A DNA stretch of 64,000 bases, taken from positions 1 through 64,000 of the forward strand of contig RBNJ01000004.1 of assembly GCA_003990765.1 (NCBI GenBank). Direction: 5' to 3'. Positions 10,403 to 43,762 of this stretch are shown piece after piece (within the stretch, counting starts at the first letter, position 1; every line of letters starts with the position of its first letter). A model generated the notes under the pieces. It had not been told where the DNA came from, searched no databases, and saw nothing but the letters and a program-made list of their open reading frames with translations. A program made the translations under genes and the position numbers. This DNA is from Jimgerdemannia flammicorona (taxonomy: Eukaryota).

Positions 10403-11873
10403 TGTAACAGTGACCCCAGAATGATGACATCAGCACAGGAGACAATCTTTCTTTACAAGCCACCAGATCAGAGTACAAGAAGATCATACGGCATACAAGA
10501 TGAGCAATGATGACCAACTGTGAGTCATTGTGACTACAGCACAAGCATCCTGAAGAATATAAAAGAAGGATCAAGGAACCACAGTAGCAACAACCAATAA
10601 AAACCATCAATCCCAAAATAGCTCAAAGACTTACCACAAACAAAATGCCTGCTGCCCACCAAACCTCAAGATTAAGGAATCATCAAGGTATCTCAGTTGA
10701 GGAAAGGATATTCCAAGACATCAGAAGAGCCATGAGGACCTGCTCAAGAAGGACTCCTAGTGTCAACCTGGGTACTGCAGACCCCTATCACTTCATTCTC
10801 TACCACTACGAAATGGAAACAAGGATCACCATTACCACTGAATGCCTCCAAATGTGGCAGGAATACGAAATAGGAAACCTCCTCTACTGAGAGTTCCCAC
10901 AGGCCAGTTCTCAAGAGCTACAAGATGCCACTCCCATGGATCTATGTGAGGCAAGGACAGCAAAGAAGATACATCAGATATTCAGGCATGCACCATGGTT
11001 GATCCCCAACTTGGAGTATGTTAGAGTCTCAGACTTCAGAGATCTGTCATCCTGCCATATCAATGCACTAGAAGCCAGGGTAGCCACAGAAGCCCAGTCC
11101 ACCATCACCCTCAATAGCAAAGAAGTAGAAGACTTCTGGTACCCTATCCTTCAGGACAACCCAGACCAATTTCTGCAAGGATTGATCTCAGTATTCCAAG
11201 GCCCAAGCATTTGGGTTAGATCTCCCCAAGACCCCACATTTGTCCCCTATTTTGTAGAAGAGAACCTCATAGACTAGAGAGCTCCAGATCTTGACCCCGA
11301 TTTCTCTGCCAAACGTGATGATGTCATCGGCGATGACATCATCCTGCATGACATACCCGAAGCATGTGAAGAACATGAAATGCATGACAACAAAGTACGC
11401 GAGACATGTGGCCTACATGACGAATTCACAGACCTCATCTCCTTCAGTAATGATGATGATGGAGCTCCCATGGTCCTGAACTTCCTGCTCTAAGTTCTTT
11501 GTTATCCTGGATAATGCCAGCACTGGTATTCTCATGTAATACTGGATAATGCCAGCCCTGGAACTTAGTAGTTTTAGTTATTGGAATTTATATTTAGCTT
11601 TATATCTTAGCAACCATTAAATTATATTTTGTATAAATACCTCTCTTATTTCTTCTGAAATAAAGTCAGTCAAGTTCTAGTTTCACTTACATACACTTCC
11701 TTGCAAGCAATCTAAGAGATAACAAGACAGTTAAAGATAAGAAGTTTGAGGACTATAAGACCTTGGGAAGGCACTCCAATAATAACTTGCTTATAATAAC
11801 TTGAGTTAGTCTAAGAGATACATCTTGAAGAGAATCTGGTGTATTTGAAGGACTCAACAACCACTATGTGACA
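10403..11873 (+). repeat. LTR of family A (1471 bp)
   Basis: TG...CA ends. TATAAATA at about 11632 and AATAAA at about 11659. Homologous to 58760-60267. Confidence 0.88.
10645..11493 (+). pseudogene. Accessory ORF inside the family A LTR (283 codons, two in-frame stops)
   Basis: ORFs 10645-10890 and 10936-11277 are in one frame that runs to TAA 11491-11493. The TGA at 10888 is TGG in the A2 copy (59241-59243). The TAG at 11275 is TAG in both copies, so it may be the original stop. Confidence 0.75.
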
Positions 11874-11876
11874 ACT

Positions 11877-11893
11877 TGGTGCCCATTGGCTGG
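11877..11893 (+). other. Primer-binding site of family A (shared with family C); priming tRNA not identified
   Basis: TGGTGCCCATTGGCTGG 3 nt after the LTR end. The same motif occurs at 37614 and 60271. Confidence 0.75.
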
Positions 11894-11993
11894 TGATTCA
11901 AGATAAATCCCTCACTTTCAAGCTGAAAAACGAATAACCCCCACAACAACTACCCTGACTACAAGAGTCATCCCTGCAAGAATTCAAGACAAG

Positions 11994-14203
11994 ATGGAAA
12001 TGCACCCCCCTACATTCTATGGATATACTACTGAAGAGTCAATCCTGACCTTCATTGAAGACTTTGAACAATTTGCCACTGTATGAGCCCTTGGTGTGGA
12101 TGCTCAATTGGCCCTTCTACCAGTCAGCCTCAGAGGACCTGCCAGAGACAAGTTCAATGCAGCCACCATTGCTGATGCTGGTGCAGCCAAACTTGCCAAC
12201 ATGAAGGCCTTCCTCAGAACAACATATTATACTGAAGAGATCAAGCAAGCTCTCAAGGATCAACTCAATACTATCTGCCAGGGACTTAGTAAAGATCCCA
12301 ACTCATTCTATATCCAAATTTGCCACCAGATTGTCTTGGCTGACTATGATGATCGCCTCAAGGAACAAATAGCAGATTCAACCTTCCTCAAAGGAGTTCA
12401 CCCTGAAATTGCCCTAGCAATCTGGTCTACCCCAGCTACACTGACCCTTGATCAGAAAGTGGTCTTTGCACAGAGATATTGGACTGCCAGACACCCTGCT
12501 GAATACTCAATGGAGAAAATAACTGGTATCAAGATGGAGCCATCAAAGCCAACTAGTATCTTACCTACCACAGTTGTAAACAGACAACCAACCCCACCTA
12601 CCCCCAAGACAGCCAAAGCTGACCCAGTGGAAGAACTTGCCAAGCAGTTCACCAAGATGATTGCACATCTTAGTGATGTTGTTAGAGAAGTTCAAAGCAC
12701 CAACAGGAGACCAGTGCAGAGATTTGCAGCTGCTACAGAAGAACACAATAACATCACATGCTTCAGATGTGGAGAAGAAGGCCACTATGCAAAGAATTGC
12801 ATGACCGAAACAAGACGCAAAGCCCAACCAAGCAATGCTAGCAGAACCAGAGAACAAACCAATGCAGTAGTCATTGAGGAGATTGGTGACACTGATGATG
12901 AAGAGTATTATGAAGAGCTCGAATTCTACCCTGCTACTGAAGGTACCAGAACCCAGTCCAAGCCCTATGACAAGAAGAGCAACAGCAAGCCAGTTGGAAG
13001 ACCAAAAAAGACTCCAGCTGTCACTATTCAAAGCAAGACCCAACATGAGGAGATTGATCAAGATATGGAGTTAGACGAGGCCACCCACCAAATCATCGAA
13101 GGTACTACTCTAGTCTCAGGAGAAAGCGAGAGCAAGAAGGAACAGAAGCTGTATAAGACCAAGATCCACCAGTATGACATCTACAAGGACCTCAAGGAAC
13201 AGAAGGTCAATGCCACTTTTGGGCAGCTAGCTGAGATCCCTGCCTTCAGACAGCAGTTGAGAGTAGGACTTGCAACTACTGTCAAGAATCAAGAGTACAA
13301 GATTGTAGAAGCTCACAATGCACAAGAAGAATCTGAGAACTCAGGTGAAGAATCCGAAGACCAGTGCAAGATATCAGCCTATACCCCCTGCCAGATCGAA
13401 GACTGTATCTTTGATGCCATCATTGATACTGGTGCTGGAGGATACCTCATGAGCAAGAAGGCAATTGACCACCTAGGTTGGGATATTGAAGAGTCCACCA
13501 AAATGGTCTATGTCACAGCAGACGGTATACAAGCTACCTCCCTTGGCAAAATCCGAGAAGTCCCCATCAAGATAGGAGGAGCTACCATCTCAGTAGATGT
13601 AATTGTTATAAGCACCACCAACTATGACATCCTCATTAGTAACTAATGGCTTCACAAGGCCAAGGCCATCATTGACCTCAATGCCCAGAAGATGCAGATC
13701 AACTACAGAGGGAGAAAGGTACAAGTTTCTATCAATGTCTACAAAGGAGTCCTGCCAGACATGGAGGAAGGAGATGAAGAAGACACAGAGGTCTTCATGC
13801 ACTTGGTGAACAAGAACAAGAACAAGACACCCAAGCTCACAGATGAGCAGTGGTATAACAAGATCATCGATGGGTATGCCCCTCAAGGAAGATGCCCCCA
13901 TGGTACTAGAATGTACTGCTCCGAACACCTGAATGATTGCTGGTCCTGTATCAGTGAAGTCAGGAAAATCTGCCAACAAAAATATGAGCAAGAAGCTGCC
14001 GAAGCAAAAAGGAAAGCTGAAGAAGATGACCAGCCCCCAGAGCTTCAAGCTGACAGTGATGATGAGGAGGAACAAGAATCAGACATCACCCTCAAGGTCA
14101 AGAAGTTTCACCCTGAAGCCAAGATCCCAGAATACAAGACTGAAGGAGCCATAGAAATGGATCTTGCCAGCATCCAAGATACTACCCTCAAACCACAGAC
14201 CAT
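11994..14203 (+). pseudogene. gag-protease-CPHG module-dUTPase (N-terminal part) of A1
   Basis: Covers ORFs 12096-13646 and 13692-14234, with stops explainable by C>T. CCHC knuckle, DTG protease motif, and KVKKFHPEAKIPEYKTEGAIEMDL (dUTPase motif 1 region). Confidence 0.85.
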
Positions 14204-14716
14204 TCCACTCTTGCCTGGTTATTCCACACTCTGAACCCCAAAGGAATATATACCAGATGGATCTACAGGCTGTAAGAATATAACTGTACTGTCAAGCACT
14301 GCCCAGGTGTAGATAAGATCGTCTTTTAAAATCATTTAGCAGATAAATTAAAGTTTGAAAAAAAATGATTTTTTGAAACATTGTTTTTCTGTTAAAAATA
14401 TATCTCAATTTGTTTAAAAACAATTTTTTTTTTTTTTGTAAAATTTTTACCAAAGGTAGAATTATTATATAAAAAATTATTGGTAAATTTTTTTTTAAAA
14501 GCTATTATGATTTTAAAAGTTATAAACTCTTAAAATCTTGCCTCTAAATATAGGTACAAAACAGTCAAAGAGATAAATAGCTTAGCAGTCATAGTATAGT
14601 TAGATTAGCCTTATACATATGATGTAACTGTGGACTGACTCAGCAATCAGACAATCTCTTAACATGTTAGATTATACTTATATTATGTGACTGCATTCCA
14701 ACTCAGCAAGGCACTA

Positions 14717-17034: not shown

Positions 17035-17579
17035 ACTAAGTGCTATATCTATATCTAGCATAGTCCAGATAGCCTCTCACTAATATAAATACCCCCTCTC
17101 CCAGACCTCAGAATTATAGACTTGAATACTTGAACAATCTGAATACAACTCCTGAGTACTTCCCCACAATATCTCTTCACATAACTACTCTTAGTATAGC
17201 AATATCATAAATAGAGAATAAACCTATTTAATAACCCACAAACTACTCTTAAGTAAATCTGTTCCCTATTAGATCCCACTCCTAACCCTGTTACAAAATT
17301 TCCTAATTGGGTATTGTCTGCAGCAATACACCAATTCAACTAAGCTGGTCTTAGTTTCTCAAACTTCCTGAAATACAGAAAATCCTGAACATCTAGAACT
17401 AGTCTAAAAAAGGACTTGGTTGAGACATCAACCTGATCTTGAAATCAATAAGTGTAGAGGACATACTCTATACAAAATTGATCTTGACCATAAGAAAAGA
17501 ATCTTCCAGAATATCTAGAACTTCCAGAAAACTCTTCCAGAACTACATAATGGTTACTCTAAAAAGCAACCCTCTTACA

Positions 17580-20500
17580 GGAGCTATACCACTTAAGAAA
17601 TACATATACCACATATTGCTACTTGAAATTGAAGTAATTAAGAAGGAACTAGAAGAACTACTTATATGAGGAGCCATCTAGCCAAGCAAATCTCCTTAAG
17701 GCTCACCAGTCTTATTCATCAAGAAGAAGAATAGTATCCTGTAAATATATATAGACTATTATGCACTTAACAAACTCACTGTTAAGAACTACTATCTATT
17801 ACCTTTGATTGATTAAATCTTTGATGCTCTCAAGAATATCAAGTACTTCACTAAGTTAGACCTCATGTCAGGATACCACCAGATCTGAATCAAGCTAGAA
17901 GATATTTCCAAGACTGCATTCATAACCCCCTTTGGACTCTATGAATTCCTGGTCTTAGTATTTGGTCTCACCAATGTACCTACCACATTCTAGACTCTGA
18001 TAAACAAGATATTCAAGAACCAACTATTTATTTTCCTGTTAGTATATCTTGATGACATTCTGATCTTTAGTGTAACTAAAGAAGAACATCTCAAATACAT
18101 TCAAATAGTTCTGAAGATTCTATAAAAACATAAGCTTTATACCAAGCTTAAGAAGTATAAATTCTTTAAGGAATAAGTTGAATATCTTAGCCACATTGTC
18201 TCTACACAAGGAATTCAAGTAGACCTACACAAGATAGAAACAATTAAAGAATAGCTCATTCTGTCAAATCTCACAGAACTCTGATCCTTCCTTGGTCTAG
18301 CTGACTATTACCACTACTTTGTCAGAAACTTCTCTAGTATTGCTGAGCCACTGACTAATCTCATGAGGAAGGCCCTGCACTCAGACCACTATGTACCCTA
18401 TACCTGGGACCTCTTCTGCCAACAAGCCTTTTAAGAACTCAAGAACTGCCTGACCTATGCTTCAGTTCTGCATAATGCAGATTAAGGCCTAAAATTCACA
18501 ATTACTACTAATGTGTTGAATTTTGCTATTGGTGCAGTCCTGTCATAAGATGATGACAAAGGACATTACTCTATTACTTTTGAGTCCTGCAAGCTGGCCC
18601 CAGCTGAACAAAAGCTAGCTACTCATGAGAAGGAACTACTATCAATAATATGTGTACTAGACTATAGTGATACTATCTAGAAGGTGTTGAGTTTGATATT
18701 ATTACTGATCATCAATCTCTCAAGTACATCAACACCCAACCTACTCTATTACATCTACAAGCCAAGTAGAGTCTCAAGCTTTAAACCTTCAACCCAACAA
18801 TCATCTATAAGCCTAGTAAGACACTTATAGTACCAGATGCCTTATCAAGATACCCAGACCTCACCACAATCATGTAAGTCACCTTGGTATCAGAATTCCT
18901 AAACTAAATCAGGTAAGCTTATAAAGAAGACATAGTTGCCACTAGAGTTTTCTTGAATGAGCTCAAGGATACATATACTGTTGAGAACATCTGATCTATT
19001 ATCAAGACCAAGTCTACCTACCTGAAAACATGAACCTATGCTATAAGGTTTTGCAAGAACACCATGACTCCTCTCTTGTCAGTCACCTAGGAATTGAGAA
19101 GACTGTCAAGAACATCCAATACCACTACTATTGGTCAAATATGGTCAAGAAAATCAAGAACTATGTTGCCAGCTATAATCTATGTTAGTATAATAAGTCT
19201 ATCAACCAAGTATCTGCTAGTTTGCTATAACCACTGCCAATTCCTACTAAGAAGTTTGAGTAAGTTACCATGGACTTTGTAACTCAACTATCATGAACTC
19301 AATCTGGTGCTAATGCTATCATCATATTTATTAACCACCTGACCAAGACTATGGTTGCTGAACCAATCACTATCAATGCTATTATACCCGAGATTACAAG
19401 AATCTTCTTCAAGTCTATCTTCTATCACTATAATCTACCATGAGTAATTGTTATTAATCATGACTCCAAGTTCACCAGTCACTTCTGGCAAACTCTCTTC
19501 AAGACTCTAGAAACCCAATTAGCTATGTCTACTATCTTTCACCCACAAACTGATGGACAAACTGAGCACATGAATAGAACTCTAGAACAAATACTTAGAA
19601 ACTATATTTCTTATGAGCAAGATGATTGGGACATCTATCTAACTTATATGGAGTTTGTATATAACAATACTGTCCAATCATCTACTGATCTTTTCCCTTT
19701 CTAGTTACTCTATGGTCAAGATCCCGAGACCCCTGCAAGTCTATTTTCTTTCAAGAAAACTAGTCAAATACAAGTCACAACTACCAAGAACCTTATAGAC
19801 AAAATGGACGAACTACTCAAGATTGCTACTATGAATCTTCAGAAGGCTCAATAGCATTAAACTAAGTATGCTGACAAGAAATACTGTGATATCACTTACA
19901 CTGTTAGAGATCAAGTCCTACTGTCTACCAAGAACCTCAAGATACAATCTCAAGTCAACTACCCTTTGAACAAGTTCCAATCTAAGTATATTAGACCTTT
20001 TGAGATTACCAAACAGATCTCTATATTCTCCTATCATCTCAAGCTACCTGAAATCATAAGAGTATATCTAGTCTTTCATATGTCACACCTCAAGACCTGG
20101 AACTAGTTATCACCCTACCCTGGTCAAATTCCTAAGCCTTCCACCTCTATGATTATCAAAGACCATATTGAGTATAAAGCTGAGAAAATCCTTGACAAAT
20201 AAATCTGCTACTGCTGTTCTAAATACCTAGTCAAGTGGATGGGTTATTCTGAATATAATGCTATCTGAGAACTACTGGTCAACCTCAAGAACTCTCAAGA
20301 TCTAGTCCAAGACTTCAAGGTAAAATATATTGTTCAATTCCTATAGTAACTTCCTTAGATTATTGATGACCTATAGCAATAATCAGTACCTTATATATTG
20401 GAAGTTTACTTTGGGACCCCAGAACTAGCAGAACATTTAATGAACAAGAAGTCTACTGAAATGAAGCTACTAGCTGGGTTTGAACCCCTCTCAGTTAGTT

Positions 20501-21111
20501 AGTCTGATAATAGGCTCTTTACTCTATATAAGGATGGCCAATTCCTGCCAATGTACCAATTCAAGTTTGAGAAATTTTGGTTAAGTATATCTAGTCTAGT
20601 GTTACCTAAGAACTCAAAAAGAATATTGATTCTTAAGGAGAGAGAGATGTAATAATTTCACAGTCATATTTAGTCTTAGTATATTTTCATGTCTTTTAGT
20701 TAGTCTTTTCTTATCATTTCTTGAACATTCTACTATGTTCTGTCACCTTCTACTTGCTTAAAAATCTTCTCTCAGTATCCAGACACTACTAGAACATTCT
20801 TGTCTTTCCTTGATACTAAGTATCTTATCTTAGCAAGTTATGGAATCTTTTGGAACATTGTAGAATAGTATTAGTCAGCTTTGCTGAGAACCTATTTTTT
20901 GGTATTTCTCTTTCTTTTTAAGATCCTTCTGGATATTTCTTTCAGATCATGTATAAATATCCTTATTCTCTATCTAAATAAAGCTCAGAATATTTTCTCC
21001 CAGAAATCCTTCAAGAATACTTAAATCTTTAAGTATCTCTTTGAGCTACTTTAGACCAACTAGAACTTTTAGATTTAGCCACTTTCTCTTAAAGAAATGA
21101 GAACTATTACA
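17580..21111 (+). mobile_element. Chromovirus-type Ty3/Gypsy element D: RT-RNase H-integrase-chromodomain, PPT and 3' LTR
   Basis: RT YLDD at about 18044, FHPQTDGQTE integrase motif, chromodomain KYLVKWMGY (about 20170-20320), PPT AAGGAGAGAGAGA at 20635-20647. Many transition-derived stops. Confidence 0.88.
20648..21111 (+). repeat. 3' LTR of element D (464 bp)
   Basis: TGTAATA...TATTACA inverted ends directly after the PPT; contains TATAAAT and AATAAA. Confidence 0.82.
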
Positions 21112-23307
21112 CAGCTAGACAGAATTGATAGAGAGAGGGAGATAGTTGGTAGGAGTGAGGAGTTGGATAACTAAGAGAAGATTAAGAGACTGGGCTCACT
21201 AATAGATACTGAGCATCTTGGATGAAGAGATTACAGAATTTATACTCATTAAGTAACAGAGCTGAGCTCAAGGATTGATTGGATCTTAATTGCTGAGTGC
21301 TGGAGAGTAGATATCTGGAGTTCTTTGAGACAGTATAGTATCTATAGTCAGATTACTGAGGTTTGTTAGGCTGTGGGAGGTTTGGGAGGAGTGGAGAGGG
21401 GCCTGGACATTGATATCTGAATACTTTATTACTGAAGAAATCTTCTTGTGGAATGCATGGGTAGTGGATATTAGCTTCAGGATTTTGAGCTAGAGGGCAC
21501 AGAGGCTGGAGATTGGGGATCATTGATGGTGTTTGAAATTGAATACCTAGCAGTTCTAGAGAGAGACAGAAAGAGAGAGGGGGGGGGCTCAGAAGAGAAA
21601 ATATCTATGGTGGACTTCCCAAAGATTGGAGAAGCTATTGGAGAAGTGGGTGGAAGTACTGAATAATAGAGAGAAGAGAGATTAGAGGGTTCAGTGGGTT
21701 TAGCTAGAGGTGAAGGAACTGAAGAAGCTGCTTAGATAGAAAAAAGAATTGCAGACTAAGAATATAGTGGCCTAGCTGAGATAGCAGGGCTTAGAGGAGA
21801 GAGAGAAGCCTATGAAGTTTTTATCAAGACTGCTTCAGGTGAGGAGGGCAAGGCAGTGGTGGGAGGGGATATTGGATGAGGTAGAAAAGATAGTGGTTGG
21901 AACTCTAGAGATCTTGGCCCAGTTGAGATCTAGGTAGAGATGATTGTAGAGTGAGGAGAAGGGGGGGGGAAATGTATTGGATATTGAAAGACATCTAGAG
22001 GATTGGTACTTAGACCTAGCAGAGAGCTTAAGTGAACTTAGAGTACCTGTCTGAGGAGAGGAGGTCTGTCAGATATTGGTGATAATGAGCTTTAAGACAG
22101 CTCCAGGAGAGGATAGTCTATCTTGGGATTTCTGAAAGAAGTTGGTAGAAGTGAATGTGGCTCTGGAGGAGATAACATAGATATATAATGAGATTATTAG
22201 CATAGAGATCTGGATTAGAGAGCAGCACTTGGGTCTTATAGCTCTGTTATATAAGAATAAGGAGAGAAGGGAGAATTAGAAGAACTAGAGACCAATTATA
22301 CTTCTAGATATAGATCACAAGTTGGTTATAAAGATTCTGGTGGCTAGATTATAAGGAATAGTATAGCATATATTGGAGACAGAGCAGTAGGGCTTTATTG
22401 GGGATCATTTGATCAGAAATGAGATAGTGTGGATATACAGTATTATTGAAGGAGTCTATACTATCAGAGTTGATGGTTGGCTAGTATTTCTGGACCAAGA
22501 GAAGGGTCCAACAAGTGTAGCTGGAGAGGGTGCTGAAGTGTATGGGGATTCTCCAAGGGTTTAGATATTTTTTATCAGCCTATTGGAGTCAGATAGCTAT
22601 TACAGCAAATAGGTACAGAGGAGAGTCTTTTCCCCTGAGCAGAGGAGTACTGCAGGGAGACCTAATGTCTCCAATCCTTTATGCCCTCTCTCTGGAGCCT
22701 TTATTATATAGGATTAGGTGCAAGGTGGGGGGGGCTGAATATTTTGAGAATTAACTAAAAGGTGGGGACCTTTGCTGATAATATAGTAATAGAGCTAGAC
22801 TTAGTGAAGAATGTAGTAGTACTGAAGGGTGTAGTAGAATAGTATGAGGGATGCTCAGATATTAAACTTAACTAGCATAAATATAAGACTTTGGTATTAG
22901 GTAGAGAAATAATAGAAGAGGATATGATTGGAACAGTTGTCCTAGCAGGAGAGACAGTATAGTATCTAGGGATCTGCTTTTCAGTATATAGTTCTCTATT
23001 ATCTTGAGAATGGTAGAAGTGGTAGCTGGTTGATTAGAACAGCTCTCTTCTAGAATGAAGCAGCCAATATATCTCTCTGGCTGATAGAGTAATAGTATTG
23101 AATAAATATTGGCTATCTAAGTTATAGTATCTGAGATATTACTTGGACTTCTTAGCATAAGCAGTCAAGAGACTGTTAAAGATGGCCAGGTTGTAGATCT
23201 GAGTAGAGTAGCAGAGTTAGATTGGATAGAAGGTATTGATATTGCTGGTAGACCAGAGAGAGCTAAGTCTAGTAGACTTTATCAGGTACCTATACTGCTT
23301 GAGGGCA
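21112..23307 (+). mobile_element. Degraded LINE ORF2 fragment (end of APE endonuclease plus RT), same family as 52056-57927
   Basis: Collinear with the minus-strand LINE ORF2: WILIAECW, FLDQEK, GVLQGDLMSPILYALSLEPL, FADN, LVDF..LYCLR. Confidence 0.85.
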
Positions 23308-25378: not shown

Positions 25379-27431
25379 TGTAAGTATACAATCTCTAAGC
25401 CACTGAAATTACATATCACTCTCTAAACAAATCTGGAAATTATATGTAAAATCATGAAGCTGAGTCAAACTGAAGTTACAGAGTACAAAGTTGAGTCAAC
25501 TTGAAGTCACAGAATACAAGATTTATACAAATAGAACCTTACTAATAAGGACTAAATATATATATACTGAGTACTCAGATATATTAAAATAGAGAACTAC
25601 AATAAATAAAATAAATAACTATAACTCTTAAACAATATATATAACCATGACCACTGAGATCTATAACTATATCTATGCTGACATTTGGAATACTATTGTC
25701 AACTGAGCTAAACTCTCTCTGTCTCTCATAAATATCCATAGTCTGGTACCCCTCTACTTTAGGAAAGCCTGATAGAATGCCCTGAACATACTTAGTAAGG
25801 CCCACCAAATTGGACAAATCTCAAGCTACTACCAGATTGGCTGCCTCTTAGAAGACATGGTTGAACACTACTATAATACAGATATTATTCAGATATCTCA
25901 ATACCAGAAACTCATTGCCTGCAAATACTAAGAACTCTTTTGTGAGTATAGTATCTTTATTCCCTATCTCTAAGTTACTACTGCTAAAATGGTTTCTACT
26001 CTATCCTATGGCCAAATTGATGATATGGTATAAAAACTCAACCACAAGTATATTGAGTATATTCAAACTACAGACAAAATCTTTCTATATCTCAATGACC
26101 ACATCCTACAAATGTTCCAAGTTGGATATACCATAAAGGATGTCTATAATATAATTTAGTTTGATAATAATAAAGCAGAAGATAATAATCTCTTTATGCT
26201 GATATGATCTTTGTCAAGGATTCTTGCCAATCTTGATCACTCTACCAATCTTATTAATAAACTTATAATAGTTCATAACCACCTATGAGACCTAATGAGA
26301 TAATGACCACTAATATGAGTACCAACCTACATTCATCTCCAACTACTTTAACTACAATGAAGAGACTGGAGAATATAATCTATATCTCCAAATAACTCTT
26401 GAGATCAAACTGACCACCCTATCTCCCAAGTATGAACAAAATGAGCAATAGCTACTAGTATACTATAACTCTGCAACTCATAGTACCATAATCTACAGAA
26501 GGTACACAGATAGTAAATCTGATAAAAGTGAAGACAATATACCTCTCCTTCACCCACCAACTCCTTACTCAGTATATAAAATAGATAATGCTATCCTGTA
26601 GGATAGTGATAAGGTTCTAATATATTATTATCTGAGTGAATAGGGAGAAGTAATCTGAGAACTACTCTTCCTAGATGACTACTTCATCAGAGATGATATT
26701 ATTGATAGTGATGTTATCAAAGACTACTCAGATAGTATTTAAATTTATAGATAGCCTAGCAGTTATTAGTATAGTTAGATTAGTCTTATATGATGTAACT
26801 GAAAACTAACTCAGCAGTTAGATGATCTCTTGATATATCAGTTTACACTTATATTATATAACTGTATTTTGACTCAGCAAGGTACTAAAGTGCTATATTT
26901 ATATTCAGTATAGTCTAGATAGCCTCTTATTAGTATAAATACCCCCTCTCCCAGACCTCAGAATCTCAGACTTGAACAGACAAAAACAATTCAAATACAA
27001 CTCCTGAATACTTTTCTACAATATCTCTTTATATAACTACTCCTAGTATAGTAATATTATGAATAGCAAATAAATCTATTTAATAATCTACAAATCACTC
27101 TTAAGTAAATCTACACCCTATTAGGTCTCACTCCTAACTATATTATGAAATTTCCTAATTAAGTATTGTCTGTAGCAATATGCCAATTCAACTAAGCTGG
27201 TCTTAGTTTTTTGAATTTTCTGAAATACAGAAAATCCTAAACATCCAGAATAAGTCTGAAAAAGGACTTTAGTTGAGATATTAACTCAATCTTAAAATCA
27301 ATAAGTATAGAGGATATACTCTATATGAAATTAATCTTAACCTAAAGAAAACAGTCTTTCAGAATATCTAGAACTTCCAGAAAACTCTTCCAGAACTATA
27401 TAATAGTACTTTTATAAGTAACTCTTTTACA
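25379..27431 (+). repeat. 5' LTR of B1 (about 2.05 kb) containing accessory ORF remnant 25647-26742
   Basis: TGTAAG...TTTTACA; homologous to 34358-36420 and 49988-52020. Confidence 0.88.
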
Positions 27432-33464: not shown

Positions 33465-34357
33465 AACTGAACACTCTAGTACCTACTAGTTCTATACTAT
33501 ATATTACCCCTTTTGAATATTAAGTACTCTCATAATTATCATGAATGAAATCAAGAACTCAGCAAGTTAAGACAAAAGAATACCAACTCTCTAGAAAAAT
33601 AGCAAAACTGAAAGCCAGTCTATTCTCTCTATATTACTGGTAGGAAATAAGATATAGACATTTAAGAAGATTTCTTAGAGAAAATTCTCCAGCAGTGAAT
33701 GATATCAGAATTACTTCTGGTACAGCATCAAACACATGATCCTTTAATATATAAATTCAATATATTAGACAACTATACTATGAGCATGTCACTTTCTGAG
33801 AAAAATAGATGTTACTAGACTTTTGACTATCTAAATAGAGTAACAATGCTAGACTAAAATTAGAAGACCTTAATGAGGATATCAAAAGCTAAGAAGGAGA
33901 GAGTTGTAAGCACACAATTTTCAAGCCACCAAAATTACATATCACCCTCTGAACAAATCTGAAAATCATATATAAGATCATGAAACTGAGTCAAACCAAA
34001 GTTATAGAGCATAAAGCTAAGTCAACTTGAAGTCATGGGATATAAGATTTATATAAATAGAACCTTACCAATCAGGACCAAATGCATATATACTGAGCAC
34101 TCAGATATATTGAAATAAAGAACTATAATAAATAAAACAAACAACCACAACTCATAGAATGCTATTATCAACTAAGCTATACCTTCTTTATCTCTTATGA
34201 ATATCTATAGCCTGGCACCCCTCTACTTCATAAAAGCCTGATAGAATACCCTGAATATACTTAGTGAGACCTATTAAATCAGACAAATCTCAAGCTACTA
34301 CCAGATCAGCTGCTTTCTAGAAGATATGGTTGAACACTACCATGATATAGATATTAC

Positions 34358-36420
34358 TGTAAGCACACAACCCCCAAGCCACTGAAATCACACATGACCC
34401 TCTGAACAAGCCACCAAAATCACATGTGACCTCTGAACAAATCTGGAAATCACCTGCTCGATCATGAAGCTGAGTCAAACTGAAGTCACAGTGCACAAAG
34501 CTGAGTCAATATGAAGTCACAGAATACAAGATTTATATAAACAGAATCTTACCAATCAGGACCAAATACATATATACTGAGTATGAAGACATGTCGAAAC
34601 AGAGAACCAAAACAAACAACAACCACAACTTTCAAACATACAAATATGACCACTGAGATCTACAACTACATCCGCGCTGACATTTGGAATGCCATTGTCA
34701 ACCAAGCTACACCCCCTCTGCCCCTCATGAATATCCATAGCCTAGTACCCCTCTACTTCGTGGAAGCCTGATGGAATACCCTGAATATGCTTAACAAGGC
34801 CCACTGGATCAGACAAATCTCAAGCTACTACCAGATTAGCCGCCTCCTGGAAGACATGGTCAAACACCACTATAATACAGATATTATCCAGATATCTCAA
34901 CACCAGAAGCTCATCACCCACAAACACAGAGAACTCTTTTATGAGTATAGCACCTTTATTCCCTGCCTCTGAGTTACTACCAGCAAAATGGTTGCTACCC
35001 TATTCTATGGCCAAATTGACAACATGATACAAGAACTCAACCACAAGTATCTAGAATATATCCAGACTACAGACAGAACCTTCCCGCACCCTGATGACCA
35101 TATCTTGCAAATACCTCAAGTTGGATATATCATGAAGGACGTCTACAATATAATCTGATTTGACAAAGATGAAGCAGAAGACAATGATCCCTCTGACACC
35201 AATATGACCTCAAGCCAAGGATCTCTACCAACCCTGATCACACTGCCAACCTTGCTGATGAACTTACAACAGTTTATAACTACATATGAGACTTATTGGG
35301 ACAATGACCACTGGTATGAATATCAATCTGCATTTACCTCTGATTACTTTAACTATAATGAAGAGACTGGAGAACACAACCTATACCTTCAGACAACCCT
35401 CAAGACCAAACCAACCACTCCACCACCTGAGTATGAGTGACATGAACCACAGCTGCCAGCTTACTACAACCCTGCGACTCATAGTGCTGTAACCTATAGA
35501 AGATATGTAGATAGTGAAACTGATAAAAGCAAAGATGATGCACCACTTCTTTGCCCACAACACCTTATCCAGCATATGAGACAGATGATGCTATCCTGTG
35601 GGATGGTGATGAAGTTCCAATATATTACTACCTCAGCCAACAAGGAGAAGTAATCTGTGAACTACTCTTCCTGGATGACTACTTCATCAGAGATGATGTT
35701 ATTGATAGTGATGTCATCGAAGACTACCCAGATAGTATCTAAACCTATAAATAGCTTAGCAGTCATAGAATAGTTAGATTAGCCTTGTATGACATAACTG
35801 CAAACTGACTCAGTAGTCAGATGATCTCTTGATATGTCAGATCACACTTGTACTATGTGATTGCATTCTAACTCAGCAAAACACTTAGTGCTACATCCAT
35901 ATCTAGCATAGTTCAGATAACCCCTTACTAGTATAAATACCTCCTCCCCCAGACCTCAGAATCTCAGACCTGAACAATCTGAACACAACTCCTGAGCACT
36001 TCTCCACAATATCCCTTCACATAACTACTTCTAGTATAGCAATATTATGAATAGCAAATAAACCTATTTAATAACCCACAAACTACTCTTAAGTAAATCT
36101 GCTCCCTGTTAGATCCCACTCCTAACCCCATCACAAAATTTCCTAATTGGGTATTGTCTGCAGCTATATGCCAATTCAACTAAGCTGGCCTTAGTTTCTT
36201 GAACTTCCTGAAATATGGAAAATTCTGAACATCCAGAACTAGTCTAGAAAAGAACTTTGGTTGAGATATCAACCCAATTTTGAAATCAATAAGTATAGAA
36301 GATATACTCCATATGAAATTGATCTTGACCATAAGAAAATGATCTTCCAGAATATCCAGAACTTCTAGAAAAACCTTCCAGAACTACATAACAGTTACTC
36401 TAAAAAGCAACTCTCTTATA
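34358..36420 (+). repeat. 5' LTR of B2 (2063 bp)
   Basis: TGTAAGCAC...CTCTTATA, TATAAATA at about 35932, AATAAA at about 36057. Confidence 0.9.
34646..35742 (+). pseudogene. Accessory ORF (about 365 codons) inside the U3 of the family B LTR
   Basis: ORF pieces 34583-34771, 34787-34972 and 35204-35440 share one frame, separated by TGA (from CGA) stops. 35551-35742 follows after a 1 nt frameshift. Copies at 25647-26742, 50243-51344 and in the split B1 3' LTR. Confidence 0.78.
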
Positions 36421-36435: not shown

Positions 36436-37709
36436 TTTACAATCCAATTTTGCTTCAAGATGCTTCCTCACCCCACTACAAACCCTTCTGAGAATTCTTA
36501 TAAGTTGGTATAAAGCCCAACCTCTGAACTGGAATTTATTCTGAACCATCTGATAATCTGGAGAGAATTGAACCTGACATACAAGGACAATTTGACCTCT
36601 ACACCTATAACAAGTGGGACAAACTTCACTCAAAGAAAGAAGTACTCCAATTAAATCAGCAAATAGGTGAATCCCTATTCACCAAACTCCTTGCGCTACA
36701 CCCAGTAAGTCAAGATGAAGAAGGTCTTATAGAAGCCTTCTTTACCCTTCTCAATAAGAGTTTTGTCAGCTCCACAAATCTAAGTGACCTAGGACAACCA
36801 GCAGCAGTCTTTCTAGCCTTAGTTCCTCATGAAGCCCAAGTCTCTATAGCCAAGTGGCTCAACTCTACCGACTTTCACCATATCAGGACCAAGATTGCAT
36901 TATACTACTGATTCCAGAACAGCAAGACCTGCCATATTCTTAAAGAAGAAGCAAGAAAAACCCTTTATCAACTATCTGACCCCAAACCAGAAGCAGGCCC
37001 TGCTATAGCCCTACCCAAATCTGAAACCAATACTGAACCAGAACTTGACTTTGAATTGAGTCCATCTGAAATCAGATATATAACTGATTCTGTCTACTTT
37101 GACACTGAGTAAACCCAATTACATAAAGACCAAACCGAAGAGGAGGAGGAGTATCTCAGTGAATTTGATCCCGGATATACCACCAAAGGAGAAGCACCTC
37201 CATCAGGACAGAATATACCTATTGTGATGGTATAACCAGATTTAGAAGAAGGAAATAGGAAACAGACACTTGATTGTACCCAGTCCTAAAGTAGTATAGC
37301 CATATAGTTAGTAGTCCCCAATTTCACTATTTGCTAAATATTTTGCAAAGTGTTAAATGACTCATAATCTAGCCACATAACTCAGTAACCATCTCATAGC
37401 TATAAATAACCCAGTATCTTCAAGTGAATAAAACCTCAGATCAAAAGTGTTAGAAAAAAAGAACAAGTATACTGATAAAGGGACTTTCGGGATTACCTCT
37501 TTAAAACACATTTGGCCTCAAGGAACTACTGACTCTGGGAGTCAAGAAGACAAGAATTCAAGATAAAGAAATCTGATGTACTTGCCCATCTTAGCATCCA
37601 CTACATTACAACTTAGTGCCCATTGGCTGGTGATTCAAGATAAATCCCTCACTTTCAAGCTAAACAATGAATAATCGCAACAAGAACCCACACAACACAA
37701 TCAGACAAA

Positions 37710-40700
37710 ATGGATATGAGACCACCTATATTCCATGGATATATCTCCAACAAATCAATCATCATCTTCATTGATGATTTAGAGCAATATACTGCAGTAA
37801 GGACCTTAAGTGCAGTACAACAAGTAGCCTTACTCCCTGTAAGCCTCAGAGGCCCAGCAAGAACTGCATTCACCACAGCTAATATATAAGGAGCTGATAA
37901 TTCAGTAAGAATTCTGGCTTTTAAGACCTAGCTCCGAGCAACCTACTATACAGATGAAATCAAACAAGTACTCAAGGATCAATTGAATACTATCTGCCAA
38001 GGAATGTCCAAAGACTCAAACACATTTTACACAAGAATCCGATACCAAATAGTTCTCACTGACTATCCAGATGCAGTTCAAGACCAAGTGGCCGAGAATA
38101 CCTTCATGAAGGGCATTCATCAAGAAATTGCCTTAGCTATCTGATCTACCCCAACAGCACTGGACCTAGCATAAAAGGTTATCTATGCCCAAAGATACTG
38201 GACCACTAGACACTCTCAAGACCACACAATGGAAAGAATAACAGGAGTAAAAATCAAACAAGTACTGAGGATCACCAATACAGTTCCAACTACTATAGTC
38301 AACAGAAATACACAACCACAACCACAACTACAAGAGCAGAGAAGAGCTGACCCAATGGAGGAACTGGCCAAGTAGTTCACAGAAATGACTGTATACCTCA
38401 GTGATGTGGTCAAGGATAGTGCTCTCAATGAATCAAATCGAATTGAATTTGGCCCAAACTCAATTTGATTTGATTGAATCAAGGGTCCAATTTGATTTGA
38501 TTTAAATCGAATCAAAGGTCCAATTCAATTCAAAGTTCGATTCAAACTTTAATTTTCAAAATGTAATAACTTGACGAAACCTCATCCAAATTTAACGTAT
38601 TTTAGCTTGTTAGATTCACCATATTAATGTAATTCTAACAAGCTAAAGTACGTTAGATTTGGATGAGTTTACGCTGAGTTATTGTATTTTAAAAATTAGG
38701 GTTCAAATCAGACCCTCAATTCAATTTGACTTTTGATTTGATTTGAATTGATTTGAATTGAAAAATCCCCAATTCGATTTGACTCATTTAACCCTCAATT
38801 CGATTTGATTCGAATTGATTCAACTCATTTGGGAGTACTAGTCAAGGAGTTCAAGAAGAAGCCAGTACAGAAATTTGCAGCTACTTATGACAGATAATCA
38901 GTAACCTGCTACAGGTGTGGAGAAGAAGGCCATTATGCCTCCAATTACATGACAGAAACCAAGCACAAGGCCAATCCAAGTAATGCAACCAGAAACTGTG
39001 AACAGGCAAATACTATCACCTTTGAAGAGATTGGAGAATCTGAAGAGAAAAGGGAGGAATAGGAAGCTTATTCTGCTACTATAAGCAAGAAGGATGTACA
39101 AACCAGTCTCTACAAAAGACCTCTAGGCAGACCTCTTAAGAAGGCTCAGACACCAACAAAATAACCAGAAACAGTCATCAAAAAGGAAAGCCAGCAGACC
39201 GAAGCTGATCAAGATATGGAACTAGAACAAGACACTGAACTGGAGCAAGCAGTAGAAGATATTATTCGAAATACCACCCCATCAAGTGAAGGAAAGAAGG
39301 AACAGAAATTGTGCAAGAGCAAGACCTTCAAGTATGATATCTTCAAGGATCTCAAGGATCAAAAAGTAAATGCAACCTTTGGCCAGCTAGTGGAAATCCC
39401 AACATTCAGACAGCAAATGAGAACAGAGATATCTGATATTGGAAAGGATCAAGGCTACAGAATCATTGAAGCCAACAATGCACAAGAAGATTCTGATGAA
39501 GAAAGTGAAGATAATTGGAAGACATCAGCCTATGCTACCTGCCAGATCAAGGACCGAGTCTTTGAAGCTATCATTGATACAGGAGCAGAAGAATGTCTCA
39601 TCACCAAGAAAGCAGTAGACCACCTAGGCTGGGAGATAGAAGAAGCCACCAAATTGGTGTTTGCCACAGCTAATGGAACATGAGCAACACCTCTGGGAAA
39701 GATCCAGGATATATCCATCAAATTCAGAGAAGCTACTATCCCAGTAGATGTCATTGTCACAAATGCAACCAACTATGATATCCTTATTGACAATCAATGG
39801 CTTCACAAAGCCAAGGCAATAATTGATCTCAGTGTACAGAAGATGCAAATCATCTACCAGGGAAAGAAGATCAGAATTCTCATCAATGTCCACAAAGGAG
39901 TCTGCTCTGAGATGGAGGAAGAGCAAGAAGAAGCCTATATAGTTACTATGAAGAAGAAAAAAGGAAAGCAGTTGACAGAGGAGGAATGGTATAGGAAGAT
40001 CGCAGATGGATATGCCTTACTAGGAAGGTGCCCTCATGGTGAAAGAATATACTATACCCAGCACTTGGATCACTACTACTCCTACATCATCGAGGTGAAA
40101 AAGATTGCCAATAAGCCAAAAAAAAACCAGGAGGAATCAGAAGATGGACTACCAGAGCTATTGGATGACAGTGATGATAAAGAAGATATCACAGTCAAGA
40201 TACGAAGGATCTACCCTGATGCAGTCATACCACAGTACAAATCAGAGAATGCAGCAGGAATGGACCTGTCTACCACAATATATACAACTCTCGAACCACA
40301 AACCACTACTATACTGAGAACAGGAATCGAAGTAACCATCCCACCAAATTATGTCAGAATCCTCAAGACAAGAAGTAGCTTGGCAAAGAGTGAAATATCC
40401 ATAGAAGGAGGAGTCATTAATTCAGACTATATAGGAGAAATTCTCCTCCTTGCCAGGAATCATAATTCAACAATCCCATTTGAAGTAAGAAAGAAGAATA
40501 GGCTAGTGCAAATGCTCATCCTATCTGTCCTTAACCCAAGAATCAAGGAAGTTGCAAATATCAGACAAACTTAGTGAGGAAGAGCTGAATTTGGCTCTAT
40601 AGGAAGAGGAGTCCTTGCAGCAACCAAGATTATAGAATTGGAGCACAAGAAGGAGAAAAGCCAAGACAAACACACTTATGTAATTGGAAAGAACTTTCTC

Positions 40701-43310
40701 CTCAAGAAGGAGTTACAGAACCTCTTACATACATTTGAAGATATACTGGCCACAGATTTTAAGGACATCAAGACCAAGAAACTCTTATACTATCATGACA
40801 TCAATACTGAAGATATGAAACCAATCTATCAAAAAGCTCGCCCCATTCTGCCAGTATACAAGGAATGGCTCAAAACTGAAATCAAGGAAATGGAGGAATC
40901 TGGTATCATCAAGGAAGCCAGCAGTCCTTAGTCTTCACCTATTGTCCTTGTACCAAAGAAAGGAAGCCAACTAGGAGAATTTGCACCAAGACTCTGCACA
41001 GACTATAGAAGACTCAACGAGATTACAGAGAAGGATAGACAACCATTGCTCAATATTGGTGACATTCTTATCATACTGGGGAATAAATCACAATTTTACA
41101 CCACTCTGGATCTGTTCTCAGAATTCTACCAAATTGGCCTTACATCTGAAGCCAGCAAAATATCAGTCTTCATCACTTCTAATGGAATCTATATCTATCT
41201 CTATATGCCCTTTGGAATGTGCAATGCACCAGCAAGCTTCCAGCAAATGATGAATAGCATCTTCAGAGATATTATGGTAAAATGGATGATGGTATATGTA
41301 GATGATGTGATCATCTTCAGCTGAACAGCCAAGGAGCACTTGGAACATATCAAGGAAATCCTCAGAAGGCTTCACAAAAATGGCCTCTATATCAAGCCCA
41401 AGAAATGCAAATTTGGAGAAGAAGAAATTACATACCTCAGATACATCATCAACTGTGAAGGAATACATACAGATCCCACAAAGATCAAAGCAGTAGCAGC
41501 ATACCCAGTACCTACCAGTATCACTGAAGCCTGAGTCTTCATGGGACTAGCATCCTATTACTGGAGATTTATTCGAAGATTCTCCCATATTACCAGCCCT
41601 ATCTATGATCTGTTCAGAAAAGAGGTCAAGTTCTAGTAGACATAACAACAGCAACTAGTCTTCGATGAACTCAAGATCAGACTGACCCAGGCCCCAATCT
41701 TGAGAAGATCTGACTGGACATGAGAATTTATTCTACAGACAGATGCCAGTGCAATGAGACTTGGAGCTGTCCTTGCACAGAAGAAGAATGGCACTGAGTA
41801 TGTAGTAGCCTATCTCAGCCGAGGTACTCATGGAGTGGAGCAGTCCTATGAGTCATACAAGCTAGAATGTCTTACAGTCATCTGGACTGTAGAGAAGTTC
41901 CACTATTACCTGGTGGGAAGACACTTCACCATCCAGACAGACCACTCAGTACTTACCTGGTTGCTCACCACCAGTAAACTCAAAGGAATCTATGCCTGAT
42001 GGATCATAAAGCTGCAAGCATATGATGCCACAATCACTCACTGCCCTGGAAGAACCAATGCCAATACCGACACCCTCTCACAGATACCCCAAAGGACCCC
42101 ACCCCCACAAAATCACCATGAATAGAGAGCTGTACTATGGAATCATCAGTTATCTGGAGCAGTGAAAGATACCCCCATATCTGGAAGAATGGACAAAAAC
42201 AATTATTAATTGGACATGGAAACAATTCAAAACTGATAGAGAAATACTCAAGAAAGAATAACAATTAGTCATCCCTAAGCACTGGAAGAATCAAGTAATG
42301 AAAGAAGTACATGAACAAGGCTATGTAGGAGGAACAAATATATATGACAAAGTAAGAAGAACTATGTGGTGGCCTGGAATGGAAGAAGATATCAGAAAAT
42401 TCGTCAGAACCTGTGACAAATGCCAGAAATAGAAACAAGACCAACAAGATCAAGCCCCCAGATCAGCAGACATCGAACCAGTACTATTTGCCCACATAGC
42501 AATGGATGTAATTGGCCCTCTACCTTTGATATTAACAGGCAACCAATATGTCATCATGATTGTAGACCTATTCACAAAATGGGTAGAAGTCAGACCCCTC
42601 AAAGAAGCCAATGCACAGTCAATTGCCGATTTCTTTCACAGAGAAATCATCTGCCGATTCAAGACCCCAAAACAAGTTACCACAGATAGAGGAACAGAAT
42701 TTGTCAACTAGTTCTATGAGACTCTATACAAGAAGTACAAGATCTAGCACATCAAGACCATGGCTTATTACCTGCAAGGAAACAGATAAGCAGAAAGAAT
42801 CAACAAGACCCTCAAGAACATCATTGCCAAGATCTGTGATGAATATGGAAACTGGGACCACTATCTTCCAATAGCATTATCTACTCTGCAGGATATACAA
42901 TCACAAAGCACCCACTTCACACTGTAAGAAATGCTATTTGGAGAAGAAAGTTCTAGTGGAAGTTTGTCAGCAAATAATGATGCAGTCTGGACGTATGTGG
43001 ACACAGAGATATGGAGATTGCATAAAATTAGGAAAAAGGCAGAGAATTATATAATCAAGGCACAGGTACTATAATGGAGCAATGTGGAAAAGATCTATAA
43101 GCCCCTAGAGATTATTAAGATAGGAGATGAAGTCCTGGTGTACCAGAATATGATAGAAGCTTCTTGGTCATAAAAACTGGAGCCCAAGTGGAAAGGACCT
43201 TACCTGGTGCAAGATATAAAAGGGACCACTTTCTAACTATGAAAGCCCATAGGCACAATAATCTCCAACACCATTTACTGAAACTGACTCAAGAAATATC
43301 ATGGCCAGTA
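37710..43310 (+). pseudogene. C polyprotein remnant: gag-knuckle-protease-CPHG module-dUTPase-RT-RNase H-integrase (no chromodomain seen)
   Basis: CYRCGEEGHY, IIDTGAE, dUTPase at about 40190-40600 (AAGMDL, RSSLAK, GGVINSDYIGEI), RT YVDD, RNase H LQTDAS, integrase MDVIGPL...TDRGTEF. Confidence 0.9.
38417..38840. mobile_element. hAT-type MITE with perfect 8 bp TSD
   Basis: TSD GTCAAGGA at 38409-38416 and 38841-38848. TIRs TAGTGCTC.../...GAGTACTA. Internal inverted repeat at about 38552-38697. Confidence 0.93.
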
Positions 43311-43762
43311 ACAAAAGTACTGCGATTGCACTCAAGATCACTAGCACTGCCCAAAGAGCCATCAAGAGACAATGGCATACCACTGAGCCTCTGACTATAG
43401 AGGAGTCTTATGATAGTATTCAAAGCATTGTACAGACTCATCTCTCTTGGATCTCACACTTCAAAGCCTATCAGCATCAAAATGAATTTCAAGAGTACTT
43501 CAAACTTGGCCAAGTACTCAACCAAGACCCAGAAATGACCAAAGAAAATTGGATCACAGAATGCCAGCTCTCATATTCCCAGATCACCATTACTAAGAGA
43601 ATCTACAAGCTGTTTCAAGAGAATGAACCAGCACTAGTCCACCTGTGAGGAGTGACTCCCTCAGACTTTGACCGAGTCAGACGATACCATTGGGAAACAG
43701 TAATGCAACAAATCACACAATACAAGACCATACAGACCATTGAAGCCTGGGAGTTTGAATAG
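43301..43762 (+). pseudogene. Accessory ORF between integrase and the 3' LTR of element C
   Basis: ATG 43301 overlaps the pol stop (TAA 43308-43310). ORF 43301-43648 continues past a TGA (likely from CGA) as GVTPSDFDRVRRYHWETVM. Confidence 0.72.

Follow-up and report, generated by a model that had tools for sequence, protein, structure and literature searches.

Positions 1-64,000 (forward strand) of contig RBNJ01000004.1 of Jimgerdemannia flammicorona (GCA_003990765.1), a stretch of 64,000 nt that we call the window, carry three families of retrotransposons with long terminal repeats (LTRs), of the Ty3/Gypsy type, here named A, B and C, each with an accessory open reading frame (ORF-A, ORF-B and ORF-C). 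The three ORFs very probably encode a single unnamed protein family with an all-helical N-terminal domain of ~130 amino acids (aa), in sense orientation in all three lineages. With equal confidence, we place the gene in every case immediately 3' of pol and ahead of the LTR core promoter, and regard it as borne by the LTR itself in A and B. Purifying selection very probably acted on it at the time when the families were active. A shared accessory gene had been proposed in an earlier note on this DNA, made from its letters alone; the shared family, the selection and the lack of a named domain stand, while the description of the gene as mobile and as lying at different positions does not stand as it was put.

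Accessory ORFs, their relatives and their homology

The window was mapped by self-comparison, a Pfam scan and inspection of element ends. The scan was given 109 of the 152 stop-to-stop ORFs of at least 75 aa, the other 43 being frames that overlapped these or ran antisense to them in stretches that the scan reached anyway. Using tblastn and a superfamily profile scan, we recognized eight copies or fragments of the accessory gene, all of them decayed, and found no further family members in the window. They are listed here in order of position (HMM, hidden Markov model; P0010 and P0017 are relatives of ORF-A and ORF-B from outside the window, described below).

10645..11493, + strand: ORF-A copy 1, 282 codons plus stop, with internal stops TGA at 10888 and TAG at 11275; wholly inside the A LTR
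25379..27431, + strand: B LTR copy 1, with ORF-B1 at 25647-26739, interrupted by stops and a single frameshift
34158..34370, + strand: ORF-B fragment inside an additional, incomplete B LTR (33902-34356); matched by P0017 in tblastn (E 2.7e-25) and by the HMM (17.0 bits)
34358..36420, + strand: B LTR copy 2, with ORF-B2 at 34646-35739, frameshift near 35560
43301..43762, + strand: ORF-C, 153 codons plus stop; a single internal TGA replaces an Arg codon; after the integrase frame and 37 nt before the 3' LTR
49988..52020, + strand: B LTR copy 3, with ORF-B3 at 50243-51341, frameshift near 50730; the polypurine tract AAGAAGGGGAGAG precedes the LTR
57929..58752, + strand: 5'-truncated ORF-B, in a B LTR fragment cut by the insertion of A copy 2
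59013..59840, + strand: ORF-A copy 2, decayed, in the 5' LTR starting at 58760; tblastn with P0010 55% identity, E 1.6e-80; superfamily HMM 180.8 bits

In the three B LTRs, ORF-B begins 266-289 nt after the LTR start and runs for ~365 codons to the end ...EDYPDSI, interrupted by stops and one frameshift per copy. The span given in the earlier note matches the genes, 10645 being the ATG of ORF-A and 43762 the stop of ORF-C, and the peptides quoted there were all found on the plus strand: QEYEIGN at 10858 and ARTAKKIH at 10951 in A; QEYFKLG at 43490 and ITITKRIY at 43583 in C; SYYQIG at 25824, LITRKHRE at 50507, and FYEYST at 34937 and 50534 in B.

We searched for relatives of the three ORFs in a collection of 5.8 billion proteins, and all those found are unnamed or "hypothetical protein" records from the JGI, ENA or SRC collections, none giving a taxon; the occurrence of a similar motif in many hypothetical proteins of arbuscular mycorrhizal fungi, put forward in the earlier note, is a conjecture. 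ORF-A had seven among 98 candidates, including the intact P0010 (271 aa) and P0009 (90% identical), and ORF-C had six among eight, including P0003 (153 aa, 79% identical, 100% coverage). For ORF-B there were two among 2775: an N-terminal piece of 128 aa, and a C-terminal piece of 247 aa (65% identical) without stop. In metagenomes, two loci (L001 and L002, on contigs of 1535 and 1345 nt) were true relatives among 225 pattern matches, with an A-type alignment; their proteins are 39% and 56% identical to the query P0019, and the contigs reach neither the primer-binding site (PBS) nor pol.

The intact relatives show that the stops in the window are decayed Arg, Trp or Gln codons. One aligned Arg codon has become a stop in all three B copies (TAA at ~25968, TGA at ~34967 and TGA at ~50564) and in C (TGA at ~43646). 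The earlier note had guessed Arg at these stops, and P0003 and P0017 do carry Arg there. The shared stop seems to stem from a CGA codon struck in parallel, and not to be a programmed stop.

Compared directly by BLASTP, the window copies gave E values of 0.048 for A-C and 0.19 for C-B, and 5.1 at best for A-B. With shallow family profiles, hhalign gave P 1e-4 (probability 57%) for A-C and was weak for A-B (P 0.079, 0.7%) and C-B (P 0.13, 0.45%), all in the register that the earlier note had proposed. The B relative P0017 was picked out by an HMM of the A family (12.7 bits, E 3e-6 at Z=1, P0017 residues 5-125) and by one of A and C together (16.7 bits, E 1.6e-7), with 0 of 3000 shuffles as good in both cases. 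The A-only HMM scored the decayed window copy B2 at -2.2 bits, with 1732 of 3000 shuffles as good, and the B profile gave the same score to P0010, with 843 of 3000 shuffles as good.

A HMMER search with the A+C profile, exhaustive over 1.84 billion representatives, returned 13 proteins at E<=1e-3. Among them, five more subfamilies show the motif (P0021, P0023, P0024, P0025 and P0026), of which P0026 matches both ORF-A (E 2e-5) and ORF-C (E 1e-3) of the window by tblastn. Using a 19-sequence superfamily alignment (A6), we left out one family at a time and scored it against the remainder: C reached 72.4 bits, A 56.4 bits and B, as P0017, 43.2 bits (E 1.9e-15), and none of 2000 shuffles did as well in any of the three tests. 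The B test is the cleanest because no B sequence helped to recruit the other members: the extra members were recruited with the A+C profile only, and the presence of P0017 when the alignment itself was made was a slight help at most. The B-free profile also recognized the decayed window copies B3 (24.3 bits, E 1.1e-9), B2 (22.8 bits, E 3e-9) and B1 (18.6 bits, E 5.9e-8). The direct comparisons of the window copies are thus weak, and the link becomes clear with intact relatives and the deeper profile. The claim of one protein family common to the three Ty3/Gypsy families is borne out by profile scores with shuffle controls, which speak against an effect of composition. Chance or convergence of helical, low-information sequence, for which the BLASTP and hhalign values involving B and the two scores of -2.2 bits could be cited, is a very improbable source of B's resemblance to A and C, given these B-free scores, the fact that B had no part in recruiting the extra members, and a B alignment that spans ~120 residues in a single register.

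The positions common to 11 subfamilies are, in P0003 numbering, [YFW]67, [ILM]69, G70, L73, A98, [RK]100, [HY]102, F105, P109, A111, H114 and [LI]115, which correspond to the signature [YFW]-x-[ILM]-G-x-x-L ... A-x-[RK]-[IV]-[HY]-x-[LIV]-F-x-x-x-P-x-A-[LI]-x-H-[LI]. The three ORFs have no nucleotide similarity to each other, as had been stated before: the alignments that self-blastn finds between A and C are confined to gag-pol and to the end of the LTR with the PBS.

AlphaFold, given the 19-sequence alignment, modelled the C-type protein P0003 as all helices, with a predicted local distance difference test (pLDDT) score of 86.5 and a predicted template modelling score of 0.78. Two long helices (40-75 and 128-152) flank a cluster of short helices that bears the conserved motif. 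A model of an A protein from the shallow A+C alignment (pLDDT 39.6) was unusable. The earlier claim that no named domain matches held across Pfam, PHROGs, NCBIfam and PDB sequences. None of five window translations scored above the curated cut-off of any family model (best E 0.067-0.3). Among the 19 superfamily members the best E values were 0.016 (Pfam, TBK1_ULD, two members), 0.044 (PHROGs) and 0.028 (NCBIfam), none of them a match, and a PDB sequence search with the superfamily profile gave E 0.34 at best (TatB). In the ESM Atlas, P0003 had scores up to 0.95, with unnamed bacterial or phage clusters only, and P0010 had a best feature score of 0.83 (Atlas model pLDDT 0.35).

Conservation at the protein level had been taken as a sign of selection, and omega (dN/dS) shows purifying selection in the A family. 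We counted codons with a single difference and normalised the counts to opportunity, keeping transitions and transversions apart. Among ORF-A of the window, L001 and L002, omega was 0.17-0.21 for transitions and 0.22-0.24 for transversions, values that are alike and far from 1. The concern that C>T decay might distort such a check is answered because omega is low in transversions too. In the B family, the transition ratio was 0.34-0.56 for B1 versus B2 and B3, and 0.65-0.88 for the younger pair B2-B3, as expected of decay after insertion. Differences between B1 and B2 ranked 3>1>2 by codon position (0.196, 0.128 and 0.296 at positions 1, 2 and 3), and amounted to 0.17-0.21 in the flanking non-coding LTR.

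The decay of the B LTRs has a character of its own. Transitions account for 434 of the 471 inferred changes and are mostly C>T, with rates that depend on the 3' neighbour (CpA 0.51, CpC 0.41, CpT 0.18, and 13 of 14 CpG). Judged by these base changes, the pattern is a signature of deamination or of a process like repeat-induced point mutation (RIP).

Position of the gene and history of the elements

Elements A and C show the Ty3/Gypsy order gag-protease (PR)-reverse transcriptase (RT)-RNaseH-integrase (IN) between LTRs, the remainder of A being truncated or outside the window. Element A copy 1 starts at 10403 and is truncated near 14200; copy 2 starts at 58760 and runs past the end of the window. 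The domains found in A are zf-CCHC and protease at 12087-13643 and, in copy 2, dUTPase at 62562-63041 followed by an RT region (tblastn with a C RT piece). Element C (37223-44259, with its 5' LTR at 37223-37610 and a 4-bp target-site duplication, CTAT) has the order gag-PR-dUTPase-RT-RNaseH-IN, with aspartyl protease at 39165, dUTPase at 39684-40571, RVT_1 at 40932, RT_RNaseH at 41724 and rve at 42433. It is inserted in the second internal part of the B array (25379-52020), a tandem LTR-internal-LTR-internal-LTR arrangement with LTRs of 2.05 kb and the partial extra LTR at 33902-34356.

Element B has the order gag-dUTPase-PR-RT-RNaseH-IN-chromodomain, and its Pfam domains are those of a chromovirus: RVP_2 (46018-46665), RVT_1 (47041-47295), RT_RNaseH_2 (47611-47856), Integrase_H2C2 (48264-48680) and Chromo (49317-49556, E 1.2e-16). 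Both lineages have a dUTPase, in different slots: in B it precedes the protease (29461-29931), while A and C have it after the protease and before RT. The sequence that follows the LTR is ACTT(G/A)GTGCCCATTGGCTGG in both A and C and TGGTAGCAGCAG in B; no tRNA genes that could name the PBS were found within the window. Pfam and the element ends therefore agree with the earlier description of B as a chromovirus, and of A and C as elements with another polyprotein order and a different PBS; the order is dUTPase-PR in B and PR-dUTPase in A and C, and the latter two share their PBS. By tblastn, the PR, dUTPase and RT segments of C match the A copies at 33-62% identity (48-62% for PR and RT), and C is 36-39% identical to B in RT and 30-33% in dUTPase.

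Two LTRs outside the B array are needed to place the gene:

10403..11873, + strand: element A copy 1, 5' LTR of 1471 bp, TGTAAC...GTGACA, followed by the PBS-like ACTTGGTGCCCATTGGCTGG
43800..44259, + strand: element C, 3' LTR, immediately preceded by the polypurine tract AGAAGGAAG; core TATA at 44048 and AATAAA at 44076

Both A copies open at the identical base beside unrelated flanks, which marks the 5' end of the A LTR; its 3' end was set by homology to the verified end of the C 5' LTR and its PBS. These boundaries are independently supported because contigs of a public run (X1, contigs of unknown kind) depart from the window sequence at 10402 and at 11874 (three contigs, with differing continuations); stretches without cover in that run, including gag beyond 11975, are uninformative.

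In all three families the order is the end of pol, the accessory gene, the LTR core TATA, AATAAA ~25 nt on, the LTR end and the PBS. What varies is the 5' boundary of the LTR: in A and B it precedes the gene, and in C the LTR opens 37 nt past the end of the gene. The ORF is accordingly embedded in the LTR, in its unique 3' region (U3), in A and in the three B LTR copies, and stands outside the LTR in C. The earlier note spoke of different genomic positions, which is right for the LTR boundary, but the slot between the pol end and the LTR core promoter is identical in all three. Because reverse transcription copies the LTRs to both ends, elements A and B carry the gene at both ends.

Two points weigh against this account of the position. 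The window contains no 3' LTR of element A, and the presence of ORF-A at the 3' end would follow solely from LTR synthesis. Moreover, the nucleotide similarity between the A and C LTRs is limited to the last ~45 nt plus the PBS, because of which the idea of a shifted LTR boundary rests on the order of motifs. When the part of the A LTR after the ORF was compared with the C LTRs, it scored 18 against the 3' LTR, with 289 of 300 shuffles as high, and 27 against the 5' LTR, with 5 of 300 as high. The 5' part of the A LTR, compared with the sequence upstream of ORF-C, showed no nucleotide homology either (89 of 300 shuffles scored as high).

The identity of the ORFs is ~25% between A and C and ~12-18% between either of them and B, and pol ranks likewise. 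Because the ((A,C),B) similarity of the ORFs mirrors that of pol, vertical descent suffices, and inheritance from an ancestor that already carried the gene would be the simpler history. Of the "mobile accessory gene" of the earlier note, the shared accessory gene remains; mobility is not required. The gene could instead have moved horizontally between unrelated retrotransposon families, through recombination of co-packaged RNAs: it lies in or beside the LTR, a recombination-prone end, the differing dUTPase slots of B and A/C point to modular genomes, and common ORF3 types have been reported, in the available text of PMC5408684, for distant retroelements of bdelloid rotifers. We consider such a transfer unlikely, since the ORFs rank as pol does and the relative slot is equal in all three families; with nucleotide similarity gone, it would in any case have been ancient.

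Candidate promoters and possible functions

Beyond the LTR core promoter, each gene has a TATA motif of its own upstream. The A and C features are the following:

10558..10564, + strand: TATAAAA, candidate promoter of ORF-A, 87 nt upstream of the ATG; chance ~0.09
11632..11664, + strand: LTR core of A, TATAAATA at 11632-11639 and AATAAA at 11659-11664, downstream of ORF-A; same order in L002 and in the C LTR
43215..43221, + strand: TATAAAA upstream of ORF-C, 86 nt before the ATG, in the integrase C-terminal pol frame; chance ~0.10

The TATA-like sites of B lie at -64 to -90 from the ATG, with sites 75 and 112 nt upstream in B2 and 75 and 64 nt upstream in B3. TATA[AT]A occurs at -41..-120 of the ATG in six of the six full-length window copies; in shuffles, the chance of this is 0.09-0.29 per copy and ~1e-3 for the three families jointly. 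L001 and L002 keep the TATAAAA, the start context ...ACAAACAAA(G)ATGCC and the downstream TATA/AATAAA. On the strength of these motifs, the chances seem about even that each gene is its own transcription unit, running from the upstream TATA to the polyadenylation signal of the LTR; any LTR of A or B, solo LTRs among them, would in that case amount to a complete gene.

Other repeated motifs occur nearby. TGAGTCA sites, which we take to be of the AP-1/Gcn4 type, lie upstream of the ORF TATA, once in A (10521) and twice in B (34471 and 34502; 50101 and 50132). Direct repeats of 15-16 nt follow ORF-A ahead of the core TATA of its LTR (11507 and 11542, CTGGATAATGCCAGC) and are also present in the U3 of C (43913 and 43974, AAATATTTCACAAAGT). 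The sites and the repeats are candidate control elements.

The accessory proteins are acidic. Net charge is negative in 18 of the 19 aligned members (-1 to -39), and 16 of the 19 have a net acidic stretch as their final 40 residues, the exceptions (P0004, P0007 and P0017) being likely cut short. Most tails consist of acidic stretches in which W, F, L or I are interspersed; examples are ...EAWEFE, ...LLEDFVDI, ...DLISFEDI...LNFLL and ...DDVIDSDVIEDYPDSI. Tails of the Atg8-interaction (LC3-interacting region, LIR) type were considered and rejected by eye: W/F-x-x-L/I/V is present in some subfamilies and absent from C, B and P0024.

The reading that we prefer, tentatively, is that the accessory protein may be a self-promoted, element-specific transcriptional regulator. 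This is suggested by its regulator-like position, the separate TATA, a helical domain with an activator-like tail, and a fast, family-specific divergence under selection. The protein would act in trans on the LTRs of its own family, with the helical domain doing the recognition and the acidic-hydrophobic tail serving as activation domain, and its working mode would resemble that of the foamy-virus Tas gene with its internal promoter, with no relatedness to Tas.

Several points count against a regulator. Transcription of the gene, and DNA binding and activation by the protein, are putative. In A/T-rich DNA a TATA motif has a chance of ~0.1 per family, and ORF-C has an additional ATG between the TATA and the ORF start. 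The domain matched no helix-turn-helix (HTH) or other DNA-binding fold: Foldseek of the P0003 model on PDB had 0 hits at E<=1e-3, VIA-align over 48161 chains had a best Z of 4.4 and none at Z>=5 (best Z 3.0 in a second look), and the BFVD fold search had none at E<=1e-3. One BFVD row named DUF3102 was non-significant (E 2.7, template modelling score 0.43, 120 columns), and there was no Pfam match to an HTH of the ParB/DUF3102 type. Finally, the helical domain is not basic (net charge of P0003 -1), and the C family is almost tailless, ending in EAWEFE.

According to the available text of PMC8670036 and PMC13220597, foamy-virus Tas needs and uses an internal promoter. Both Tas and the accessory gene are small genes of regulatory type at the 3' end that adjoin or overlap the 3' LTR (available text of PMC8670036, PMC13220597 and PMC4929722). 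The acidic C-terminal part is a further likeness, and the candidate promoter in the preceding coding region (the ORF-C TATA lies in the integrase frame) may be another. Of such a layout, the 3' position is present here, and the upstream TATA is a candidate promoter in all three families. In contrast, the accessory protein has no sequence or fold similarity to Tas in Pfam, PDB or BFVD (no Pfam match, and no retroviral protein at E<=1e-3 in the BFVD and PDB rows), its host is fungal, its element lacks env, and its DNA binding and activation are putative.

An anti-silencing factor or antagonist of host defence would also fit part of the data. Such a protein would recognize the non-coding DNA or RNA of its own family and shield it from heterochromatin, cytosine methylation, RIP-like mutation or RNA interference, in the manner of VANC of the Arabidopsis VANDAL elements. 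The accessory protein is element-encoded, family-specific and fast-diverging (12-25% identity between families) yet selected, and the host mutates these elements heavily, as the 434 transitions among the 471 B LTR changes illustrate. The available texts of PMC5735166 and PMC10398659 describe VANC as a fast-evolving, family-specific accessory protein, unneeded for transposition chemistry, that binds the non-coding regions of its own elements and counteracts silencing in a sequence-specific way. VANC, however, belongs to a DNA transposon class, and the accessory protein, whose own anti-silencing activity is putative, has no similarity to it or to any silencing-related domain. In addition, every window copy is mutated regardless, and an acidic-hydrophobic tail is more typical of activators. 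We give this explanation a small chance of being right.

A cofactor of the particle or of replication, that is, an acidic helical protein that binds nucleocapsid, integrase or RNA and aids packaging, nuclear import or integration, appears quite unlikely. The strong acidity of the family (net charge to -39) and the long helices, suited to protein-protein contacts, would agree with it, as would a gene that adjoins pol. Structural cofactors are, however, usually made from genomic or spliced RNA, for which neither an own TATA nor residence in the LTR is needed, and no fold match of that kind was found in PDB.

Extra genes in LTR retrotransposons are rare, and mostly env-like or enzymatic. The sag gene of mouse mammary tumour virus (MMTV) is an ORF in U3 that encodes a superantigen, nef of human immunodeficiency virus (HIV) overlaps U3 and encodes a membrane adaptor, and both are expressed from spliced RNAs. 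Like ORF-A and ORF-B, they are coding sequences within the U3 of an LTR and hence duplicated in the provirus; the proteins are unrelated, the upstream TATA suggests a separate start here, and the C gene lies outside the LTR. In Botrytis cinerea, brtn of the Boty/BcGypsy1 element is an antisense gene. It, too, is an extra gene in a fungal Ty3/Gypsy element, but the available text of 10.1101/2021.04.13.439636 reports it as a separate element-specific gene.

Additional ORFs in LTR retrotransposons as such have been described (available text of PMC5408684 and PMC2864245). Like the accessory gene, they are in sense, downstream of pol, and common to distinct lineages that also carry a dUTPase. The accessory family differs in having no enzymatic or env-like domain and in residing, in two lineages, inside the LTR with its own TATA. 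The "add. ORF" in the available text of PMC2864245 may or may not be a member of the accessory family. Our literature search did not turn up a description of the accessory family, nor of a fungal LTR that contains a sense ORF and a TATA for it, an earlier unlabelled depiction in figures or supplements being possible. What appears to be new is the protein family, the location of its gene in the LTR together with a separate TATA, and its occurrence in both chromovirus and non-chromovirus elements.

A small, non-enzymatic gene, selected in at least three element lineages and five environmental subfamilies, with a confident fold that matched nothing in PDB or BFVD, occupies the slot where complex retroviruses keep their regulators. 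Rather doubtful, in our view, is the full proposal of a regulatory gene in retrovirus style, with an unmatched helical fold, self-promoted and LTR-resident, that activates or protects its own family and is of sufficient age for a chromovirus and a non-chromovirus lineage to share it. If it were true, "complex" regulatory genomes would have arisen in retrotransposons independently of retroviruses, and each solo LTR of the A or B type would be a complete, free-standing regulator gene scattered in the genome. A trans-acting regulator would offer a handle on the self-control of fungal retrotransposons and their resistance to defence, and solo LTRs would become genes and not mere promoters. The profile of alignment A6 can be used to annotate "hypothetical proteins" as retrotransposon-derived.

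Other features of the window

At 3402-3665 on the minus strand, a short ORF matches a Prefoldin subunit (E 6e-7) and is probably a host-gene exon at the edge of the repeat-rich region. The stretch 6000-10400 is very A/T-rich (GC content 22-25%), with no ORF or domain match, and is probably a heavily mutated repeat. More retroelement remains lie at 17600-25380, including an integrase SH3 piece of the Tf2-1 type (19861-20103, + strand) and, at 23434-25330 on the minus strand, an A/C-like gag-protease stretch 66-68% identical to C; the profile scan found no copy of the accessory ORF in either of these.

Between the end of B LTR copy 3 (52020) and the truncated B LTR fragment (57929) there is a non-LTR retrotransposon resembling a long interspersed nuclear element, on the minus strand at 52400-57900, with RVT_1 at 53290-54456 and an Exo_endo_phos endonuclease at 54640-55827. 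Its GC content is 51-55%, its GC skew is strong and its open frames are long. It seems far less decayed than the surrounding LTR elements.

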